NCBI RefSeq assembly: GCF_018420025.1
Contig: NZ_JAEDAM010000005.1
Coordinates: forward strand, 1 to 26,300
Direction: 5' to 3'
Length of the DNA stretch: 26,300 bases
Source: Candidatus Vampirococcus lugosii
GTDB taxonomy: Bacteria > Patescibacteriota > Gracilibacteria > Absconditabacterales > Absconditicoccaceae
The position numbers were made by a program, and so were the translations under genes. Of this stretch, positions 528-23,675 are shown one piece after another (position 1 is the stretch's first letter; each line of letters opens with the position of its first letter). Under the pieces are notes generated by a model. It worked only from the letters and a program-made list of their open reading frames with translations, had not been told where the DNA came from and did not search any database.

Positions 528-1901
528 TTATGGTACTCTAAGACATCATTTTCCGTCAAAACAATATCAAGCATTTGAACCATGTGCTACCATTTTTCAA
601 TCTATACTAAGAGCAGTATCTGGAGATCCACTTGTATGAGGTGCCATACCTATACCAACTCATTTTTCAACTTCCAACCGTTTAAAATCTACTGGTTCAG
701 TAACTATCAATGTTCAATCTATAAAAACATCTCAATCTACATTAGTATTTTTTAAATTTGTATTTCATCAAACTGTTAAATGTTGATTTAAAGTTGTATC
801 TCATCAAACTGTTAAATCTTGATTTAAATTTGTATCTCAATCTACTTGTAAATCATTCTTCAAATGTGTATTTTCTTCAACAGTTAAATCTTGATTTAAA
901 TTTGTATCTCATAAAACTGTTAAATTTTTATCTAAAGTTGTATTTTCAGTTACATTCAATGTACCATCTATATTTGTATTCTTTAAATTTGTATCTCATA
1001 AAACTGTTAAATTTTTATCTAAAGTTGTATTTTCAGTTACATCCAATGTACCATCTATATTTGTATTTCAATCTACTTGTAAGTTTCACTTTATTGTTGT
1101 AAGTTCAGATGGGTCACTTATATTTACAGTACCTCTAATATTTGAACTATCAGACGGACTATTTCATAAAGTAGTATTTCATCAAACTCTTAAATTTTTA
1201 TCTAAAGTTGTATTTTGAGTTACATCCAATGTACCATCTATATTAGTATCTCAATCTACTTGTAAATCATTCTTCAAATGTGTAAAATCTTCTACAGTTA
1301 ATGTTCAACTCATTGTTGTATTTTCATCAACATGTAAATTATCCTTCAAATGTGTAAAATCTTCTACAGTTAATGTTCAACTCATTGTTGAATTTTCTTG
1401 TACATGAAGATTTTGTCTTAAATTAGTATCTCAATCTACTTGTAAATTATCCTTCAAATGTGTTTTTTTAGTTACATCCAATGTACCATCTATATTTGTA
1501 TTTCAATCTACTTGTAAATCATCCTTCAAATGTGTTTTTTTAGTTACATCCAATGTACCATCTATATTTGTATCTCTATCTACTTGTAAATCTCTACCAA
1601 TATATGTATCACCACTATCAGCACTTATACCAAAAGTTCTATTATAAGTACCACTACTAGTACCAGTAAATGTTTGAAAAGTTTCATAATTTGATCAACT
1701 TCAAGCATTTATTTCAAGTCTTGTATTTCAATCAATTCTTCAATTATGTTGGAAAAACATATGTTTTATATATGCCTTTGTATTATCAATATGCTGTTTA
1801 ATTGTTAAATCAGCAGAAAAAGATATCGCAAATATCAAAAAAGAAGATACTCAAAATCATAATATATACTTATAGTTATTACTATTTATTTTTGTTTTCA
1901 T
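528..1901 (-). CDS. Secreted/anchored repeat protein, 457 aa; octapeptide (L/V-x-V-x-G/E-N/D-T-x) beta-helix/fibre-like repeats
   Basis: ATG at 1901, TAA at 528-530, length 1374 nt (a multiple of 3), open only with TGA=Gly. The N-terminus has a hydrophobic signal/anchor (YILGFGVSSFLIFAISFSA). The body is repeats such as THLKDDLQVDGNTNIDGTLDVTKK and NLTVLGDTNLKNTNIDGTLNVTENTTLDK. C-terminus: ..VGIGMAPHTSGSPDTALSIDGKMVAHGSNAGYCFDGKGCLRVP*. Confidence 0.8.
901..1067 (-). repeat. In-frame tandem repeat, 80-bp unit with 87-bp period (29 codons)
   Basis: 901-980 and 988-1067 are identical except for one base (tacatTcaat vs tacatCcaat). Both lie inside the 528-1901 CDS. Confidence 0.9.
1272..1390 (-). 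repeat. In-frame tandem repeat, 72-bp period (24 codons)
   Basis: The 47-bp string cttcaaatgtgtaaaatcttctacagttaatgttcaactcattgttg occurs identically at 1272-1318 and 1344-1390. Confidence 0.9.
1431..1573 (-). repeat. In-frame tandem repeat, 72-bp period (24 codons)
   Basis: 1431-1501 and 1503-1573 match over 71 bp with one mismatch. They encode duplicated THLKD(D/N)LQVDGNTNIDGTLDVTKK. Confidence 0.9.
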
Positions 1902-2616: not shown

Positions 2617-4833
2617 TTATTTAAATGTAATATGTAAACCAAAATTTCTTTTTTGAAATATGATACTAAATCAATCAATATCTAATTCATAAACTTTATT
2701 AAATACATCAGATGTAAACAATCAAATAATTATATTTTCAATATTTTCAGATATTTTTTGATTTATAAAATCTATGTATTCCATATAATTTATATTATTA
2801 GATTTCATATAAAATGATATATTATTTAAATATCAAAATTTATATGCTTTTATAAAATTTTCTTCTAATTTTTGATTTAATCATACTATTCATTTACTAA
2901 CTTTATTAAAATATATATCCAAATTCTCTTCTACAGATTTTATTATTAATGTATTTAATTCCAATGAATTATATAATTCATATGAATCATCAACTTCTTG
3001 ATAAGATAATGATAATCTTCATTTCATACCAGATTCTTTTAATGATTTATCTACTTTTTTAATTGTACTAAATACAAATTTTGTTCATCTTATGAAAATA
3101 TATAATTCATCTCATCAAGCACTTAATTCTATATTATCTCAAATTTTATCAGAAAGAGATTTTATAAAATAATTAAATTGTGATGTAACTAATGATCAAG
3201 TTGATAATAATATATCTTCATCTTTATTGATTTTATAATCTTTTATAGTATTTTTAAAATCAGAAAAATTCATAATTCACATATCTTTTATATCTACAAA
3301 TATTGAAATTCAATTTTGTGATTCTATATTTTGCATAAATTTATCTTTTGATAACATTCATTTATGAGAATGTGTTTGCAAAAATTCTATTCTTTTTATT
3401 TCTTCTTCATTTATTTCTTTTCATTTAAGATATGAATCTAATATTTCATTATCTCTATTTGCATCTTGTAAACTTTTATTTATATTTTCTCATCAAGGAA
3501 AAATAAAATCAAATCAATTATTTAATCCAAGCAAATATTGTTCTATATACCAATTTAAATAAAAATTTTTTGATTTAATTTCTTTTCATTTTCTTTTAGC
3601 TCTTATCAAAGCTGGATTTATAACTTTTTCTCAATCAATTTTTTGAGAAATTACAGGAAAAGTTTGTCAATCTAATTCAAATTCCTCTCATTCAAGTAAA
3701 AATATTTCTTGTTGAAAATAATCAAATTTTCTCATATTCTTTTCTATAATATCATAATTAGTATATTTTATAGGATATTTATTTGAATTTTTGGAAGCTA
3801 ATTCTGCTTGTCTAATTGCATGAACTTTTTCAGTATCTTTATTTAAAGAAGCTATATTTGTATATCAAATTCAAATATCTATTTTTCTCAATACTTTTTT
3901 TATTTTTATTTTTTCTCATTCGGGTAATATATTTAATAACTTATCTGATTTTATTACTTGATTTATTATTTGTTCTCTAGAATCATAAAATAATTGCAAT
4001 ATTTTATTTTCACAATTATTACTCTTTATATTAATTACAAGATTTTTGTAATCATTTTTTATTGTAATATAATTTTTTTGAAATTTCATTTCTATTTTTT
4101 GATAAATATGTTCTTTGATAATATCCATAAAAATATCTACAAAATTTTGTCAAAGATTATCATTCAAATATTTTATATTTTTGAAACTAAATCAAATCAA
4201 TACAGAATTTTCCTTTATTTTCATTATTGATAATAGAGGATGTAATTTTTCTATATTTTTTTTTATTTCTATTTTATCATTTAAATTTTCTTGTCAGTAT
4301 TCTTGTTCAGATTTTAAATCTTCTTCTTCATAGTTATCAATTAAATTTTCATTACTTGAATTTTTAAATCTTTTAAAATTTTTTGAAGTTTTATATTTTA
4401 TATTGGCAGAAAATTTTGATAATTTATAATTAAGTTGCATACTTCATCTTATAATTCATAATCAAGCAAATGGGATTGTTAATATAGAGGATATACTTGA
4501 AACTAATCATCAAGCAGTCCGATTTTCTTTATTTCTAAATAATTTTAATATATCTATTACATTTTCATTTGTTTCTTTATCAGTAATTATATTCATCAAT
4601 CAAATAATTGGATGCATTTTTCCTAATTCTTGTTTTTTTATATCAAATTCATATCAATTTTTAATTCTATAATATAAATATTGTGGTAAAGTTTTGATAA
4701 GTAATGGTATATCAGCAATAATTTTCAATATATCTTCAGCTAATTCAGGTGCTTCAAGTGATATTGCTAACAAAACTCATTTTCAAAATCATTTTTCTCA
4801 ATATTTTTTATTTAAAAAAATGTTTAGATTCAT
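2617..4833 (-). CDS. 738-aa protein with tandem GGDEF/Cas10-like palm modules (first degenerate, second with intact D...GGDE motif); putative nucleotide cyclase
   Basis: ATG at 4833 (in-frame stop upstream at 4858-4860), TAA at 2617-2619, 2217 nt. The standard-code ORF 3916-4128 lies in the same frame. Module 2 reads ISIFVDIKDMGIMN (D codon 3292-3294) ... NIELSAGGDELYIFIRG (GGDEL at 3103-3117) ... GRLSLSY. Module 1 (about 3760-4200) reads VLIGFSFKNIKYLNDNLGQNFVDIFM ... YITIKNDYKNLVINI ... KIDIGIGYTNIA..KVHAIRQAELASKNSNKYPIKY. It keeps the FKxxNDxxG...D...L and SiGiG...A..AK..G frame of GGDEF domains but lacks the catalytic D and GGDEF residues. Confidence 0.7.
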
Positions 4834-11725: not shown

Positions 11726-11760
11726 GATAACAATCAAGATAAAGATTGTTATTTTTTTAT
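11726..11760. terminator. Hairpin terminator shared by convergent genes
   Basis: 9-bp stem (ataacaatc 11727-11735 / gattgttat 11744-11752) followed by T7. It lies 50 nt after the + strand stop at 11677 and overlaps the minus-strand stop codon at 11749-11751. Confidence 0.55.
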
Positions 11761-12705
11761 AAATTCTTCATATAAAATATATAATATAGCAAAACTTAAA
11801 TACATATCTGCAAAATTAAATATCGGGAAATCTAATATAGAAATAAAATCCCTTACTCCACCAAGATAAAGTCTATCAATTAAATTTCATATAGTACCAG
11901 CAAATAAAAGAACAAAAATAAAACTAGAAATCCAATTTTTTTTAAGTAAAAATATAAAAAATATTGTACTAAAAAAAGTTAAAAAATAAACTATACTATA
12001 ATTAACGGATATTCACCAAGATATTCATTCATTAAATGCTTGTTTTATGAAAGGCAAAAATTGAAAATATCACAAATCATAAAAAATATATTTTGTAAAT
12101 AAATCTAAAATTACCAATAAAAAAATAAATATAATACTATAACAAATAGGAATATATTCTATTTTTCTTTTAATATACAAATAAATTTCTTTAATAGATT
12201 TCAATTTTCATATTTTTTTTAAATCGTCTATATCTAAATATTTTTGATTTTTTAGCCATTGGGAAAATGATCTCATATTTTTTCAAGTAAAATCTCATAT
12301 AGTTCATCTTTCAAAATCTATAATATTAATATTATTTTTTTTATCTACCAAAATATTTGAAAAAGGTCTTATCATTTCACCATGAATTACTCATAATTTA
12401 TCCAAAATATAAATTTTTTGCAATAAAGATTTAATTAATTTCTTTTTCTTAAAATTAGTTGATTTATCAAATATTTTATCAAAAGACTCCCCTTCAATAT
12501 ATTGATATTCAAAATAATTTTCTCAAATAGATTCTATTTGTGGAACAAATTTTATTCAATTATTATTTAATTTCTTTATTATATCTATTTCTTTTAATAT
12601 ACTTGCTTTTTTAGTTTGATCTAAAGCAATTTTTTTTGCAATTTTTTTATTTCATTTTTCATAAATATAAACTTCTCATCTTCGTCATTGTCATATTTTT
12701 TCCAT
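11749..12705 (-). CDS. lspA: Fusion protein: atypical small protein-kinase-like domain (Bud32/RIO/COG2112-like) + lipoprotein signal peptidase II, 318 aa
   Basis: A single uninterrupted frame runs from ATG 12705 to TAA 11749-11751 (957 nt). N-terminal half: MEKIGQGRRGEVYIYEKGNKKIAKKI...GVIHGEMIRPFSNILVDKKNNINIIDFERG. C-terminal half: ..IIFIFLLVILDLFTKYIF...GTIGNLIDRLYLGGVRDFISILDFPIFNFADMYL (the LspA motifs GN.iDR and FN.AD). Confidence 0.8.
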
Positions 12706-15848: not shown

Positions 15849-15880
15849 AAAAAAAGCACTGACCAAATACAGCCAGTGCT
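15849..15880 (-). terminator. Terminator of the minus-strand small gene
   Basis: 7-bp stem (agcactg 15855-15861 / cagtgct 15874-15880). The A7 run at 15849-15855 reads as T7 on the minus strand. It lies 24 nt after the stop at 15904. Confidence 0.6.
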
Positions 15881-15903
15881 TAAATTTATATCAAGTCTAC
15901 TTA

Positions 15904-16104
15904 TTAGTCATCTTCAAGTCTATAAAGTGCAAAAGACACAAAAATCCAAATAAGGAAAAAAAACAAAGAATAACTTGGATCAGCATCTACATATACACCA
16001 GTTTGTAAAAACTTAATATAACTCTGTATACTATGAAGTAATGGGAACCCCAAGATCCATATAACAAATGGTAAATTATTCATGATAATAAACTCCTGTA
16101 CCAT
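15904..16104 (-). CDS. Small two-helix membrane protein, 66 aa (or 59 aa from the internal ATG at 16083)
   Basis: This ORF is intact even in the standard code: MVQEFIIMNNLPFVIWILGFPLLHSIQSYIKFLQTGVYVDADPSYSLFFFLIWIFVSFALYRLEDD*. It does not extend upstream (stop at 16129-16131) and has its own terminator. AGGAG (16093-16097, minus strand) lies 9 nt before the internal ATG. Confidence 0.5.
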   Translation of the reverse strand: MVQEFIIMNNLPFVIWILGFPLLHSIQSYIKFLQTGVYVDADPSYSLFFFLIWIFVSFALYRLEDD

Positions 16105-16260: not shown

Positions 16261-17622
16261 TTATATATTTTCTTTAATTTTACTATGTAAATCTCAAGCA
16301 CTAAAAACTATTAATATATCATTTTTTTGATAAGTATCCAAATATTCCTTTATTTTTTCTGTATAAAATCAATTTATTTGTTTAGCAAAAACTGTTGATA
16401 AATCTTTTGTACAATTAATTTTTATTCATTTCTTTTTTCAATAAGATATTATTTCAGCTTCATTTTCTCTTGCTGTATAAGTTTTATATACTATACAATT
16501 TTTATCTTTTAGTATATTTTTAAATTCTTCCCAAAATTGTATTAATCTTTTGGATTGATGTCATTGAAAAATAATTTTTATATTTTTGTTATTAAATTTA
16601 TTTTGAAATCATTCTATAGTAGTATTTAATTCATTTGGATGATGTCCATAGTCCAAATATATTTTTGCTCAATTTTTATTTTCTCAAATATATTCAGCTC
16701 TCCTTCATATTCATCAAAATTTTTGTAAATACTGTATTATTTCTTTTTTATCTTTTGAAGTAATATATGAAATTATATTTGTAGATAAATTTCAATTTTT
16801 TTGATTATGTTCTCATCGTATATTTTCAAAATTAATTAAATTTTCTTCTATATTTGTTCATTTATTATTTATTTTTTCTTGATCAAATTCGTTTGACAAA
16901 AATATTTTATCATTTACTTTTTTTGTAAAATCTTCAAATATTTTGTAATATAATTCTTGTGTTTTGAATACATCTACATGATCCAATTCTATATTTGTAA
17001 TTCATGCAATATAAGTATCCAAATACAAAAAATGTTCATTAAATTCATCAGCTTCTACAATCATATAAAATTTTTTTATTAGATTTTCATCTATATAAGT
17101 TTGTTTATTATTTGTAATATAATTAATAACTTGTCATAAGAAATCTTTATTTTGCTCTCCTATTACAAAACTTTCATTATCAAAATCATTTAAACTAGCT
17201 CATACTATTCATAATCCAAAATCATAACAAAACTTTTTCGCCAAGTATACACACATAGCTGTACTTGTGCTTTTCCCATGTGTTCAAGCTATACTAATAG
17301 TCTTGTAAAACTTACTAATTTCTCATAAAAATTCAAAATAAGAATAATTTTTATGATATTTTTTAAAATCAAATTCCATATTTTTGGAGTCAATCACTTC
17401 TTTGGTATTTTCGGCTGCATCAGAATATATTACAATATCTTCTTTTTGTATTTCATATTTTCAATGTCATATTATTGTTTTGATACCTTTATCAACAAGT
17501 TTTTTTGTGTTTTCACTGTCATATTTATCAATACAAATTAAATTTTGATATCAAAATTGAAAAAATAAATTTGCAATATTATTAAGTCAAGTTCATCAAG
17601 CTCAAACTATTATTATATTCAT
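16261..17622 (-). CDS. murC: UDP-N-acetylmuramate--L-alanine ligase, 453 aa
   Basis: ATG at 17622, TAA at 16261-16263, 1362 nt. Translation: MNIIIVGAGGTGLNNIANLFFQFGY..., ISIAGTHGKSTSTAM, VEADEFNEHFL, TNIELDHVD, GGIGRRAEYIGE, DYGHHPNE. The glycines in GAGGTG are TGA codons (17587-17607). Confidence 0.9.
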
Positions 17623-18533
17623 TAATTTATTAGTAAGAAATTAGTTATTAAAAATCATCATCATATTACCAAAACTCATATAAAAATATATATTATATTT
17701 CTTTTTAAATTTGTCAAAGTATTTTCATCATCAGGTTTTACCAACAATAAATATGTTTGAAATATTATTATTATTAATATAATAAATGCAGTAAATCATA
17801 AAATCCAGTTGATAATAGTTGTAATAAAACCTATATTTGTTTCACTTGGTAATATTGCTCATCATATTTCTCCAACTTCTCATGCACTATTAATAGAACT
17901 TTCTCATTCTCAGTATACTAATTGAACAATTTCACTAGCAAACAAAATAGTTAATATTCAAACTATATTTCGTACAAATATCATTCTTGCACTTTTTGCA
18001 GATTCATCTTGATTTGTAGTTAACATTTTGATACCCTGTATCAACAATATTACAAATAAAAATCATACTGCCAAATATGCAAATATTTTAATAAACGGAT
18101 AAGCAATATCATTATAAAGTTGACTTGCCAAATCTATTCATTTTATTTCTTCAAATTCTGTACCTGCTTCTCATATTACTGTATCAGTTATGAATAATGC
18201 AGATATCATTATTAATATTCATACCGTTCATCGCACCATAAAAGATATTCATTTTTTTTGCTCTTCTTCACTATCTTTACCAAACATTAATTTATAAAAT
18301 CAAAAAATTGCTACTATTATTCATACTAATATAAGTATAGGAATTATTATATCTTTTCATACATAAAATATAAGATCTCTAACTCATTCTATATTATAAT
18401 TAACTATTCAACGATCAGTAACATTTTGTAATTGTTTATTAGATTGATTAAGTTCACCGTCAAATCTTCCTTGTGCAAAAGTATTTGATATTAAAAATAA
18501 TGTTAACAATATTAAAATTATTATTTTTTTCAT
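17622..18533 (-). CDS. Secreted polytopic protein built of three TrbC/VirB2-type pilin-like helical-hairpin modules, 303 aa
   Basis: ATG at 18533, TAA at 17622-17624, overlapping the murC ATG (TAATG). Signal peptide: MKKIIILILLTLFLISNTFAQG. Three hairpins (TM, charged loop, TM) follow. Hairpin 1: IIIPILILVGIIVAIFGFYKLMFGKDSEEEQKKGISFMVRGTVGILIMISALFI. Hairpin 2: FIKIFAYLAVGFLFVILLIQGIKMLTTNQDESAKSARMIFVRNIVGILTILFA. Hairpin 3: IINWILGFTAFIILIIIIFQTYLLLVKPDDENTLTNLKRNIIYIFIGVLVIGGGFLI. Confidence 0.6.
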
Positions 18534-18535
18534 TT

Positions 18536-19597
18536 TTATTTTTTATTTTTATTTATAAAATCTGCTACAAGATTAATTAAATCTACTATTTCTTTAAATA
18601 TAGGAATATTGATAATCTTTTTTTTATATATCATATAAAGATATCTTATAATCACAAAAAAATATCATAAATATAATATATTGGATATAGAATTAAATTT
18701 AATTATAGTATTTATATAAATAATATTTGATAAAACTAAAGCAAAAACAAAAGCTATCAAATATTGTAAAAATATATCTTTGTATTTAATAATATTTTCT
18801 TTATCATATTTATCAATATTTAATATATATCAATATTCATTTTTATATTTTTCCAAATCTACAAAATATTCTTTTTTATTAGTATCAGTATCTTTAATTT
18901 TTTTGTAAAAAAATATTATCATAGATTTAATATAAGAAAATATTTCTTCTGGATTCGTATCATATAATTTATCTATTTTTTCTTTATATTTATCTGGTAT
19001 AATATCTATATTGAAAACTAAAGACACAGTTCTAACAAAAATTAATGACAAAAGAACTAATGATAAAGGTATATTTAATGTAATTATAGTAAATACAGCC
19101 CACAAATACCACCACAAAAAACTTTCTTTTACCCACCAATATTTATTTATATCAGGATTATTGTACCATATATGAAAATTATTTATAGGCAAGAAATAAA
19201 AAGCTATATCTATAGAATTTACATTTATTTTTTTATATTTGATATCAACAATATCAATTTTTGACTGAAATATTTGTTTATCTTGAAATATAAGAAAAAA
19301 TCATGCAATTATCATTAATACTGCAATTGTAGCAATTAAACTTGACAATCAAGTAAAAAAATAAACATATAAATTTATTGATATTGATACAATATAAATA
19401 ATTAATGAAAAAATTAATAATCATAAAATAATTAATCAATATCTAATATATCACATAATAAATTGTTTATCTTCATCAGATATATTATTATCATTTTTTC
19501 AATTTAGTAAAAAATATACTCAAGGAGCAAAGAATAATATTGAAACAAGACTATAAGTATGTTTATCTTCAAATTTAAAATCTTTATTTTCTTCCAT
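18536..19597 (-). CDS. Polytopic membrane protein of the T4SS-like operon (possible VirB6/TrbL-type channel component), 353 aa
   Basis: ATG at 19597, TAA at 18536-18538, only 2 nt before the next start. The standard-code ORF 18830-19192 is in the same frame. It has about seven hydrophobic segments and a Trp-rich stretch (HIWYNNPDINKYWWVKESFLWWYLW). The function is inferred from context only. Confidence 0.55.
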
Positions 19598-19628
19598 TAA
19601 ATATATTATTTTATTTTATATAAATATT

Positions 19629-21701
19629 TTATTTAACATTAGTTTCTATAAATTCTTTTTCATAAGGAGAAGCTAATATTTTCATTGCAACATGTTGGTT
19701 TCAAGCAAAGAATAATCATTCTCATATATTTGAAGAAACTAATTTTTGTTTTTCTGCTTCAGATAAACCAAAAACAGTATTTAATGCTTTTATAGAAGAA
19801 GTAGATTGTTTTAATAATAAATTAACTGCAGAGTTTGCAACTATAGGTTTACCATAAGGACTTCTTACAAAATCTTCTACATCTTGTGAAATAGTTGTAA
19901 CTCAAAGTCAATATTTCCTAGCTCTTTTAATAAGTCAAAATAAAAAATTAGCAGACATATCATGTTGCATCATAATCCAAGCTTCATCTATAATTAATAA
20001 TCTTTTTTTCTTATTTGATCTTACTTTTGTCCAGATAAAATTAAGCACATTAAACATTGCTGGAGTTTTTAATGATTCATCAAGATCCCTTATACTAAAT
20101 ACAGTAAGTCATGTATCCAAATCTACATTAGTAGGATTATTAAATAATTTTGAAAATGTTCATGTTACATATTTACTAATTTTTAATCAAAGAGTTGCTC
20201 ATCATTCCATTCATTCCAAAATATGCAATAAATCTTCAAGTAGTGGAACAGTTTTTCATTCTGGTGTTTCATCATCAAATGTTATATCTTTTATAGAATA
20301 AGTAGATTGTAATGCTGTATCAAGTATTGCCTCTTCTTCTACAGATAATCATCAGACTAAAACTCATATAAGTCATATCAAATTCATTACCTGTGATCTA
20401 AGAAGATCTCATTTTCAATATTCTACATCTTCTATTTTTGGTGGCAAATCAAATGGATTAATATTTTCAGAAGAATTTACTGCTATATTAATATATGTTC
20501 ATCATACACTATTTATCAATGTTTTATATTCATTTTCTGGATCTATAACAATTACATCAATTCATAAAATAAGATATCTCAAAATTTCTAATTTTACAGT
20601 AAAAGATTTACCAGCTCAAGAAGTTGCCAATACTGTACTATTTGCATTTGCAAGTTTTGGAGAAAATCTATCAAAAATTATTAATCATCAAGTATGAAGA
20701 TTTATTCAATATAATATTCATTTATTATCTACTAAATCACTTGATATAAAAGGGAAAGATCAAGCAATAGAACTTGTTAACATACTTCTTGATATTCCTA
20801 ATTCGTCCAAACATAAAGGATTTATAGATTTGTATCACTCATCCATCCTTCGTATACAAGGTTTTACTTTAATTCAATTTCATCAAATTTTTTGTTCAAA
20901 TTTTTTGGATTCTTCATTTAATTTTTCTTCATTATCTGCATATATTGTAGTATAATAAGATGCTTGAAAATACCTTTCTTCTCTAGTAGCTAATTTTTGT
21001 CTTATTGATTCAACATCTTTATATTCCAATTCTATTTCTGAATCCAAAGTTATTCATTTATTCATAGATTCTGAAATTTCGGCTTTAAGTTGTGTAGCTC
21101 TTCTTTTCAACATTCATTGCATAGATGCATCATCTGATGGATATATAAACCATGTCATATCCCATTTACTATGGAAAGACAATGTATCTCTAGTCCATAA
21201 CATATCTAAATATGAAGGATATCATATTGCATAATATGTTCTTCACATAACTCAACTTATATTAAAATTTCATGATTTCAATTCCCAATACGATGCCGCT
21301 ATATGAGATTTATAATCTGAAAAATTTTCTATATATTCTTTTTCTATTTTATTAATATGCTCTCTAAGTTTTGATGTCAATAAACTATCTTTATATTTTT
21401 CATCTGGTAAATTTATTAAATATCTTAATTGATCTTGTAAAGATTTGTTTTCTACAGGACTTTTTCAATCTATTTCTTTAGAGTTTTTTCATTTCTTATT
21501 TTTACTATTTGTTCATCATGTTCAAAACATCATATTAAAAATACTATCAAAAAATCCTACTTTTTTAGTATCTCAAGATTTTTTTCATTGTTTACTTATA
21601 TTTTGTATTTTTTCAATATCAATTTTGATTCAACCTCATCTTTGAATATATCAAGTATAATTTGAATCATAAACAACATCTTTACAATTATTTAAACTCA
21701 T
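19629..21701 (-). CDS. virB4: VirB4/TrbE/CagE-family type IV secretion ATPase, 690 aa
   Basis: ATG at 21701, TAA at 19629-19631, 2073 nt. Walker A: NSTVLATSGAGKSFTVKLEI (20604-20621). Walker B: KKRLLIIDEAWIMM. Then RKYGLGVTTISQDVEDF and a C-terminal ..GEGLFFAGNQHVAMKILASPYE. The N-terminal ~110 aa is a non-canonical Gly/Lys-rich region. Confidence 0.9.
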
Positions 21702-21800
21702 TTTAATAATTTTTTAATAAAAATTTAAATTCTGTTGAATTATACATATTTTTATTTATATTTCAATCTAATATTATTTATTTAATTTAATAAATAAATT

Positions 21801-22601
21801 ATGCAAATCGATCTTGAAACTATTTATTATGCACTAATTATAACATTTTTTGCATGACTTTCAACTAGTATTTGAGCAATTATTGCCTTTTTTTTCAAAA
21901 AAGAAAGTTATACATTTTTATCATTTTGATTATGATTTTCTGCTTGAGTTATGATATATTTATCTTTTATTGAAATAATTCCAGAAAGTTTAAGTTTTTT
22001 TGAAAATTATTTTGTATCTGAAGTTCCTGCTTGAGTTTGGTCATTAATTTTTCTTTCTGTTTGAATATTATTTATGATATTTGTAGATTATATTTTATGA
22101 GAAAAATTTAATCCTGATGAACCAAATTTTTTGGAATGAGTAATTAATAAAAATAATTTATTTAAAGTTGGTGTTTTGACTGCTGTAGCTTTATCTTTAC
22201 ATAATATTCCCGAATGACTTGCAACTTTTGTCTCTTGAGTTGTTAGTATAGAAGTTGGATTTGCAATTGCTATTGCATTAGCTTTACATAATATTCCCGA
22301 ATGAATGTCAGTCGCTTTACCAATATATTATGCGACAGGTAGTAAACTTAAATCTTTTATATATGCAAGTTTAGCTTGAATGTTTAATTTAATTTGAGCA
22401 ATTTTTTGAATTATATTTGTTTACTATTTTTATAGTGAATTTATAATGTGAGCTATGTTTTCTTTTGTAGCTTGAATTATGCTTTTTGTATCTTTTCATC
22501 AATTATTGCCAACGGCAGCAGTTTACAAAAAACATCATTCTGAAGTATTTTGAGTTTTATTTTGAATGTTATCAGTTTGATTTATAATGTTGTTTTTATA
22601 A
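21801..22601 (+). CDS. zupT: ZIP-family zinc transporter ZupT, 266 aa
   Basis: The HNIPEG motif is duplicated (ALSLHNIPEGLATF and ALALHNIPEGMSVALP, with the G encoded by TGA). There are eight hydrophobic segments. ATG at 21801, TAA at 22599-22601. Confidence 0.9.
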
Positions 22602-22604
22602 AAA

Positions 22605-23675
22605 ATGTTAACTTATTTTTTGATATTTACATTTGCATTATTTATTTGATTTTTTTGAATTTTTATTTTCAAAAAATTATCTATATTGGATAAACCATGA
22701 CCTGATATAATTCCCGCTAGGAATCCAGTTCCAAATATACAATGAATTTTTTTGTTTATTTGAATACTGTCTTCCGTTTTTATTTTTTTCCCGAATTATT
22801 TTTTTCAAAAAGAAATATTAATACTTTTTATATCTTGATCTTTATTAGTTATTATTTCTTTAATTGATGCATTCAAAAATCTTAATCCTAAAATTAGACT
22901 TTTGGTACAAGTTTTGGTAGTATCAATTACTTTTTTCTTTGCTTGAGTTGGTATATTTGAAATTTCACTTCCTATTATCTGAGAAGTACAATTTCCTATA
23001 ATTATATCTTTAATATTAACTATTATATGGTTTATAGGTTTTATTAATGCTATCAATTGGTTTGACTGAGTAAATTCTTTGGCAAGTTGAGTTAGTTCTA
23101 TTTGATTTTTGAGTATTATTTTATTATTACAATATGTTGTAATTCCTCATTATACTTGAATATCACAAGAAAATTTGGAAACATTAAAAATGGTGATAAA
23201 TATATCTTATATATTTTTTATATTTTCATTAGTTTATACATTTATTGAATTTAAACCTTTTTGAATTTTGAGAGATGTTGGTGTTATGTTTTTATGATTT
23301 AGTTTGGCTTATTTATCATTGCTTTGATGAGCTAAAATATGAACTATAATAGTAGCTTTATCATTAGTTGTATTTGATTCTATTTGGGTATTTATTCATA
23401 GAATGTTTATTATCAAAAAAAATCCTTTGAAATGAGATTATACACATTTGCATTATAGATTAATGTCCTTAAAATGGTCAAGAACAGAAGTTAGAGTTTG
23501 TATTCGATCTTGGTCTTTATTTTTAATGATTGTTATGATATTGCTTTGAACAGATAGAGAATGAAAATTAATAATATTTGCTATTATGTTTTTATTTTTC
23601 TTCTCAATTAATTCTTATTTATTTTGGTACAAAAAAATTCCTTGTGAATATTTACAAAAAAACAAAAATAGTTAA
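22605..23675 (+). CDS. Polyprenyl-phosphate N-acetylhexosamine-1-phosphate transferase (glycosyltransferase family 4, WecA/TagO/MraY family), 356 aa
   Basis: Translation: LSILDKPGPDIIPARNPVPNIQG, FINAINWFDGVNSLASG, ILRDVGVMFLGFSLA, GDYTHLHYRLMSLKWS. It starts 3 nt after the zupT stop. The antisense ORF 22805-23056 is an artefact. Confidence 0.85.

Follow-up and report, generated by a model that had tools for sequence, protein, structure and literature searches.

The closest described relatives of the locus considered here are the type IV secretion systems (T4SSs) of Patescibacteria, the first T4SSs shown to be essential for the survival of their owner. Their VirB4 ATPases form a clade related to MPF-FATA; the systems are chromosomal and mostly lack relaxases, and VirB2-like pilins are found near virB4, often as arrays of 2-11 genes (Quinonero-Coronel et al. 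2025, PMC12102498). According to the same survey, virB4 of Gracilibacteria has neither VirB3 nor TrsD associated with it, VirB6 is described there as “absent, suggesting extreme sequence divergence”, and peptidase and lysozyme genes adjoining virB4 of Southlakia are essential. Transposon sequencing of Southlakia epibionticum (Wang et al. 2023), as summarised in a 2025 review, found the T4SS and its six-gene pilin array essential for epibiotic growth and comEC dispensable (PMC12857230). The present locus lies on the minus strand of a 26,300-bp contig of Candidatus Vampirococcus lugosii (Absconditabacteria), analysed whole and referred to below as the window, where virB4 is followed by genes for a polytopic membrane protein and a pilin-repeat protein and by murC. 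V. lugosii relies on prey for nearly all building blocks, and its type IV pili, together with ComEC and ComEA, were proposed to serve DNA uptake; the virB4 locus is not mentioned in its genome paper (PMC8080830).

By its gene content and profile scores, the module is the known chromosomal, relaxase-less T4SS of Patescibacteria in a pared-down Absconditabacteria variant. The system as such is no new find, having been described before as the Patescibacteria-type T4SS (PMC12102498, PMC12857230). What is new is the Absconditabacteria architecture, with an orphan partner of seven transmembrane helices (7-TM) and a fused triple pilin, and the capture of murC, which is restricted to one clade. The genes and the junction in question are as follows.

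19629..21701, minus strand: virB4, encoding a 690-aa VirB4-family ATPase, CD1110 / MPF-FATA-related, both Walker motifs intact (A, SGAGKS; B, LLIIDEAW)
18536..19597, minus strand: gene for the polytopic membrane protein, 353 aa, after a 31-nt gap from virB4
17622..18533, minus strand: gene for the pilin-repeat protein, 303 aa, after a 2-nt gap from the polytopic gene
16261..17622, minus strand: murC, encoding a 453-aa UDP-N-acetylmuramate--L-alanine ligase
17620..17624, minus strand: TAATG, in which the pilin stop and the murC start overlap by 1 nt

Under the standard bacterial code (table 11), no open reading frame (ORF) in the window exceeds 120 aa, and ORF calling with this table was rejected because it yields fragments only; once TGA is read as sense, long-ORF coverage of the window rises from 3.7 kb to 31 kb. 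When virB4 is aligned with 60 homologues that use code 11, its TGA codons correspond to Gly in 19 of 22 strongly conserved columns and to Trp in none, so that code 4 (UGA = Trp) is rejected. From the alignment with Gly and the prevalence of TGA over GGN codons in five window genes (159 versus 24) we infer that the genome uses genetic code 25 (UGA = Gly). Read in this way, the four genes run head to tail with gaps of 31, 2 and -1 nt, and the arrangement, gaps and TAATG given in the preliminary description are reproduced exactly. NCBI protein records agree with the ORF boundaries, through 100% matches for VirB4 and MurC and exact look-ups for the pilin and the polytopic protein.

Public Logan/ENA translations of code-25 genomes (P0121, P0409-P0414) carry Trp at every UGA, i.e., they were translated as code 4, and exact look-ups in these records matched only with W in place of G. 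Such mistranslation lowers the apparent conservation of Gly columns and may hide code-25 families in sequence searches.

The ATPase scores 339.5 bits against the NCBIfam CD1110 family of VirB4-like conjugal-transfer ATPases (cutoff 325) and also matches Pfam P-loop_TraG (88 bits), AAA_10 and DUF87, the VirB4 model of Mycoplasma integrated conjugative elements (ICEs; 271 bits) and F-type TraC. Models of FtsK/HerA type score far below CD1110. K365 and S366 of Walker A and D572 and E573 of Walker B are invariant in 14 diverse orthologues, and identity across Absconditabacteria is unusually high at 60-73% (7919 homologues were scored). By these scores, the protein is a true VirB4 of the Firmicutes/ICE type (CD1110, MPF-FATA) and not a member of the FtsK/HerA group. 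The earlier reading of a VirB4-family ATPase with intact Walker motifs is thereby borne out, and the proviso that it might fall into FtsK/HerA or another non-T4SS clade can be set aside. As to the MPF type, which was to be settled phylogenetically, the answer of an MPF-FATA-related protein comes from profile scores.

The likeness to the MPF-FATA / CD1110 systems of Firmicutes and Mycoplasma ICEs extends to the pilin, which resembles Mbov_0395 at 37.6 bits, below the NCBIfam cutoff of 40, but not to the rest of a conjugative apparatus. Pfam scans of the called proteins of the window, which left out a few small or partial ORFs (e.g., membrane proteins of 158 and 172 aa and two fragments at the contig ends), found no VirD4, relaxase, VirB1, VirB8/9/10 or integrase, and no scanned protein matched VirB3-like or VirB8-like components in Pfam or NCBIfam. 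Unlike its counterparts in ICEs, the window system thus stands without relaxase, type IV coupling protein (T4CP), VirB1-type hydrolase, VirB8-like protein, integrase or oriT context, and it appears to be vertically inherited rather than mobile. This agrees with the preliminary description, in which the set was called minimal and T4SS-like and was held apart from classical conjugative modules. A T4CP-like gene of VirD4 type does lie divergently beside virB4 in one related locus (L088:1-2409; TraG-D_C 22.9 bits with cutoff 22, TrwB_AAD_bind 21.2 bits with cutoff 20.5); it has no homologue in the window and was rejected as a component of the window system.

The 353-aa protein, second in the series, is modelled confidently by AlphaFold (AF2; pLDDT 89, pTM 0.73), with about seven transmembrane helices and a helical insert on the cytoplasmic side. 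Pfam and NCBIfam gave no match to it, none of 81 members of its family matches TrbL/VirB6, VirB3 or any Pfam family, and a Foldseek search of the model against PDB gave no match. The family is narrow, with 202 clusters at 50% identity in a set of 1.84 billion representatives; the members listed are mostly about 310-350 aa long. The gene for the protein lies next to virB4 in about 20 Absconditabacteria loci. Four loci have a partner of only about 110 aa, equivalent to the three N-terminal helices of the polytopic protein, a form that is VirB3-like in size only, with homology unproven. The protein is a lineage-restricted partner of VirB4 and possibly an analogue of VirB6 or VirB3.

The 303-aa protein, secreted or membrane-bound, combines a signal peptide with three tandem VirB2/TrbC-like helical hairpins (residues 48-122, 132-207 and 231-302). 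As a whole it matches PF18895 T4SS_pilin in three stretches (39.8 bits, cutoff 26.6) and TrbC/VirB2 (28.8 bits, cutoff 27.9), in keeping with the pilin-repeat protein proposed earlier; when scanned singly, every repeat matches T4SS_pilin best, with TrbC as a weaker second. A PDB sequence search with the pilin gave no match, and Foldseek matches to its low-confidence model (pLDDT 58) were disregarded as generic helical bundles. The module of about 283 aa is present at full length in 21 loci, and by its domain composition the pilin “array” is here fused into one polypeptide. In some lineages, the triple pilin bears a cysteine-rich N-terminal extracellular extension of 400-680 aa (L002:13083-15167, L009:11151-14024, L022:11170-13842), which suggests an adhesin-pilin fusion.

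Set against the Patescibacteria clade as a whole, the locus shares a chromosomal location, an MPF-FATA-related VirB4, the absence of a relaxase, VirB2-like pilins beside virB4, the monoderm envelope, housekeeping surroundings and a presumed role in epibiosis rather than conjugation. It differs in that no VirB3, VirB6, VirB8, TrsD, VirB1 or T4CP is recognisable near virB4 in the window; the constant partner in Absconditabacteria is the orphan 7-TM protein instead, the pilin is a single triple-hairpin ORF (lengthened N-terminally by as much as about 680 aa in relatives) in place of 2-11 separate genes, and one sub-clade has murC appended as a further cistron. If Southlakia is taken as the model, VirB4 would power the extraction of VirB2-like units and their assembly into a short envelope-spanning conduit or pilus, which would serve epibiotic or predatory contact with the host and not DNA conjugation, with the 7-TM protein acting as a membrane platform and functional analogue of VirB6 and/or VirB3. 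An assembly and contact role of this kind is the most likely function of the apparatus in Absconditabacteria.

The distribution of the module was followed through 91 loci, 12 obtained via exact-protein look-ups and 80 from GTDB species representatives, each translated with its own code. The trio of virB4, polytopic gene and triple-pilin gene occurs in about 20 of 26 Absconditabacteria loci, always amid housekeeping genes that vary by lineage; such contexts, together with the high identity of VirB4, argue for a vertically inherited chromosomal system. A recurrent gene of about 350 aa upstream of virB4 in other lineages was considered as a part of the system and rejected, being a C-terminal fragment of the housekeeping protein PriA. 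Directly after the trio, murC is found only in the window, in Absconditicoccus praedator (L001) and in L005, L006, L087 and L088, six loci that form one clade in a neighbour-joining tree of VirB4, and a variant order of virB4, pilin, a 501-aa lipoprotein and murC is seen in L089. At the level of database clusters, at least 12 VirB4/MurC pairs lie on a common contig, among them at least 8 of the 10 nearest VirB4 relatives. The link is absent from 19 other Absconditabacteria loci, one of them with a 64% identical VirB4, and no relative using code 11 (Peregrinibacteria, Peribacteria and those labelled Saccharibacteria) has murC within 8 kb of virB4. The question of a conserved block, raised in the preliminary description, is thus answered for the trio, which is conserved; the adjacency of murC is limited to one sub-clade of Absconditabacteria and is missing in most of the loci that carry the trio. 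Neither a Mur ligase nor FemAB near virB4 is mentioned in the main text and two supplementary files of the 2025 survey (PMC12102498).

Within the murC-linked clade, the flanks of the block differ on both sides. Upstream there are ZIP and GT4 genes, GatC and EF-G, GT2 and ExoVII, or the T4CP-like gene. On the downstream side one finds a small ORF with YidC, a 320-aa gene with UvrB, a gene of 559 aa, or an M23 peptidase. The block remains intact despite at least four upstream and at least four downstream contexts.

The ligase itself is a divergent MurC with intact catalytic motifs. Its best NCBIfam model is murC (184.8 bits, 3e-54), below the equivalog cutoff of 335; Pfam Mur_ligase_M and Mur_ligase_C are matched, the N-terminal domain PF01225 is not detected, each of the 13 sequences matched in PDB is a MurC, and the motifs GTHGKST, EADE, NxExDH, GxHN, GRR and DYGHHP align. 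MurC orthologues form one coherent Absconditabacteria group with 33-48% identity, followed by a sharp drop, and murC is therefore regarded as native, with no sign of horizontal transfer. In a human-associated lineage (L091), murC directly follows murG, as in the dcw cluster, whereas the equally bona fide murC of the window lies away from all other mur/fts genes, behind the pilin gene of a secretion system. Since a relative keeps murG-murC, the position beside virB4 is a derived relocation, and the displacement from a dcw-type context noted earlier is supported.

The junction with the pilin gene varies even within the clade: TAATG recurs in L005 and L087, and the genes are separated by 1 nt in L088, 24 nt in L001 and 32 nt in L006. 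None of 25 window genes has a Shine-Dalgarno core, A/T-rich tracts preceding the starts instead, and 7 of 19 same-strand junctions on the contig measure 12 nt or less (-26, -8, -1, 2, 3, 6 and 12 nt). With tight junctions and the lack of Shine-Dalgarno cores common to the whole genome, the TAATG overlap is therefore a matter of general packing and no sign of the special coupling formerly read into it. The sequence features expected of an operon are present, namely a common strand, the stop/start overlap and no terminator-like site found between 21701 and 16261. The elements around the four genes are these.

21739..21766, minus strand: best-scoring sigma-70-like promoter candidate upstream of virB4, TTGAAA-16-TATAAT, 11/12
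21801..23675, plus strand: divergent neighbours, a ZIP metal transporter gene and a gene for a GT4 (WecA/MraY-family) polyprenyl-phosphate sugar-phosphate transferase
15904..16104, minus strand: 66-aa orphan ORF for a small protein with two transmembrane helices, between murC and the first terminator
15854..15881, minus strand: first terminator-like hairpin 3' of the operon, a 12-bp stem followed by a T-run

The first minus-strand hairpin (15881-15854) lies beyond the 66-aa ORF and not directly 3' of murC, and the transcription unit may extend past murC to this ORF and the terminator. With no homologue in the 91 loci, the ORF is either a possible final cistron or a chance reading frame. Another promoter-like site (16236-16209) falls between murC and the 66-aa ORF. 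Promoter-like matches in this DNA of 20% GC occur at chance level (80 versus 78 expected from shuffles), and the match upstream of virB4, which sits in a 99-nt divergent intergenic region common to the ZIP gene, is therefore only a candidate. The 66-aa ORF contains no TGA codon, and the AGGAG before its internal ATG is the only Shine-Dalgarno-like motif seen on the contig.

The linkage of murC is most readily understood as the packing of an operon in a small, dense genome without Shine-Dalgarno use, with at most a benefit from co-expression with envelope genes. In this scheme, murC encodes an ordinary single-function cytoplasmic ligase of peptidoglycan precursors, which in one sub-clade (Vampirococcus, Absconditicoccus and relatives) would have left murG-murC and become the downstream cistron of the operon. 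There it would be read from the virB4 promoter of an essential, presumably constitutive operon, and the block would persist while its flanks reshuffle because the dependence of murC on this promoter locks the adjacency in. We consider it probable that murC came to the 3' end of the operon in this way and is held there as a packed housekeeping gene. Several points weigh against this picture. Co-transcription and coupling of the four genes are inferred from sequence only, and a promoter-like TTGACA-16-TAATAT at 17717-17690 lies 68 nt before the murC start and may give murC a promoter of its own. The polytopic partner shows no detectable relation to VirB6 or VirB3 by profiles or Foldseek. Two further wall enzymes occupy comparable positions in relatives: an enzyme of the FemAB family that forms peptidoglycan bridges (54.6 bits), encoded immediately behind the trio in a second sub-clade (L015, L016, L018, L019; e.g., L016:5888-6736), and an M23 peptidoglycan hydrolase (107.7 bits; L088:8488-10242) on the same strand directly after murC, with no homologue in the window. 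They invite the alternative that the supply of wall precursors is co-regulated with the T4SS-like apparatus and that wall enzymes are recruited to its operon, as a conduit passing through the wall without a dedicated VirB1 hydrolase would need local remodelling and resynthesis. Such coupling, the chief competing reading, is possible though somewhat doubtful. It would account for the integrity of the four-gene block in at least six divergent lineages (MurC 37-48% identical) while both flanks change, for the likewise cytoplasmic FemAB and the M23 hydrolase in their respective places, for the GT4 envelope transferase as a conserved divergent neighbour, for the presence of FemAB and a wall deacetylase no more than 6 kb from virB4 in Peribacteria, and for the essential peptidase and lysozyme genes of Southlakia (PMC12102498). 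Wall-precursor enzymes make up 2 of about 9 distinct downstream contexts as compared with about 2% of genes, a rough excess (p ~0.01) that was estimated post hoc from contexts that are not fully independent. Yet most trio loci adjoin no wall gene, their neighbours being SecG/SBP, MscL, AP endonuclease, UPF0114 or a nuclease, and the lineage with the 64% identical VirB4 lacks the link to murC. MurC, moreover, acts early, in the cytoplasm and on a soluble precursor, without spatial specificity, and it appears to be the housekeeping copy of the cell. Of the two options left by the preliminary description, coordinated wall synthesis and compaction, both remain, and compaction is favoured. As a small correction to that description, the GT4 envelope gene of the WecA/MraY family lies about 900 bp upstream on the other strand.

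A stronger proposition, which we regard as unlikely, joins the conduit and the wall enzymes (MurC, FemAB, and M23 in L088) into a functional unit and takes the 7-TM protein and the triple pilin for a new minimal T4SS core replacing VirB3, VirB6 and VirB8. If true, it would mean that cells lacking VirB1 rebuild their wall in step with the insertion of the apparatus, or that the apparatus has a part in acquiring or handling wall precursors of the prey. More improbable still is an import channel for Ced/ComB-like uptake of, or “feeding” on, DNA or host macromolecules, with murC as a passenger. The dependence of the organism on prey for building blocks (PMC8080830) and the lack of evident effector genes in the operon fit such a channel, as do weak matches of VirB4 to CedB (35.8 bits) and CedD (27 bits), two ATPases of DNA import in archaea; these scores, however, are far under the cutoffs of 700 and 600 and reflect a shared ATPase fold. 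ComEC, ComEA and type IV pili are already available to V. lugosii (PMC8080830), in Southlakia it is the T4SS and not comEC that is essential (PMC12857230), and the direction of transport is not readable from sequence. The idea of a decayed, no longer functional remnant of an ICE draws on the ICE-associated CD1110 type of VirB4, on the resemblance of the pilin to Mbov_0395 of Mycoplasma ICEs and on the absence of relaxase, T4CP and integrase among the scanned window proteins. It is highly improbable, as the strong purifying selection seen in a VirB4 that is 60-73% identical phylum-wide with invariant catalytic residues is incompatible with decay, the trio is syntenic in about 20 lineages in housekeeping contexts, the locus shows no compositional anomaly, and the homologous system of Southlakia is essential (PMC12857230). 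A decaying trio would be expected to show dN/dS near 1 or many frameshifts across lineages, and the opposite is observed.

With packing as the preferred explanation, the linkage of murC by itself is of modest interest, as a housekeeping gene captured by an essential operon, and would gain more only if the recurrent wall-enzyme neighbours prove functional. The architecture carries broader implications. The Absconditabacteria version, which combines an ATPase with a single orphan membrane protein and a single fused triple pilin, may be the Patescibacteria T4SS at its smallest; its 7-TM partner may be the answer to the “missing VirB6” of Gracilibacteria, and this partner and a pilin array made as a single polypeptide constrain models of how the pilus or conduit is built. 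The cultivated member Absconditicoccus praedator makes the lineage a tractable minimal model.

Several observations concern the neighbourhoods of the system. ZIP and GT4 genes adjoin the four-gene block in the three closest loci only. In the sub-clade of L015, L016, L018 and L019, two conserved genes of about 453 and 487 aa come next after the FemAB gene. In the Peribacteria locus (L064:1-7748), the 6 kb upstream of virB4 hold genes for a DegT aminotransferase, FemAB (117 bits) and an SH3 + polysaccharide deacetylase, and among them lies a 645-aa gene judged, by eye only, to encode arginyl-tRNA synthetase.

Elsewhere on the contig, neither the tRNA scan nor the Rfam scan of the window gave a hit, and GC skew follows the gene strand throughout (flips at about 5.5, 12-13, 15.5 and 22 kb) and is not a replication signal. 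The minus strand at 2617-4833 encodes a 738-aa protein without a Pfam match, labelled “GGDEF domain-containing” in UniRef, whose gene overlaps the next by 26 nt. At 528-1901 (minus strand) lies the gene for a 457-aa membrane-anchored protein with many tandem beta-helix-like repeats (DGTLDVT..NT.L) and a bactofilin match of 48 bits, which may be a surface or cytoskeletal fibre protein. A single ORF at 11749-12705 (minus strand) fuses an N-terminal Pkinase domain (41 bits) to signal peptidase II / LspA (68 bits), an unusual architecture for LspA.

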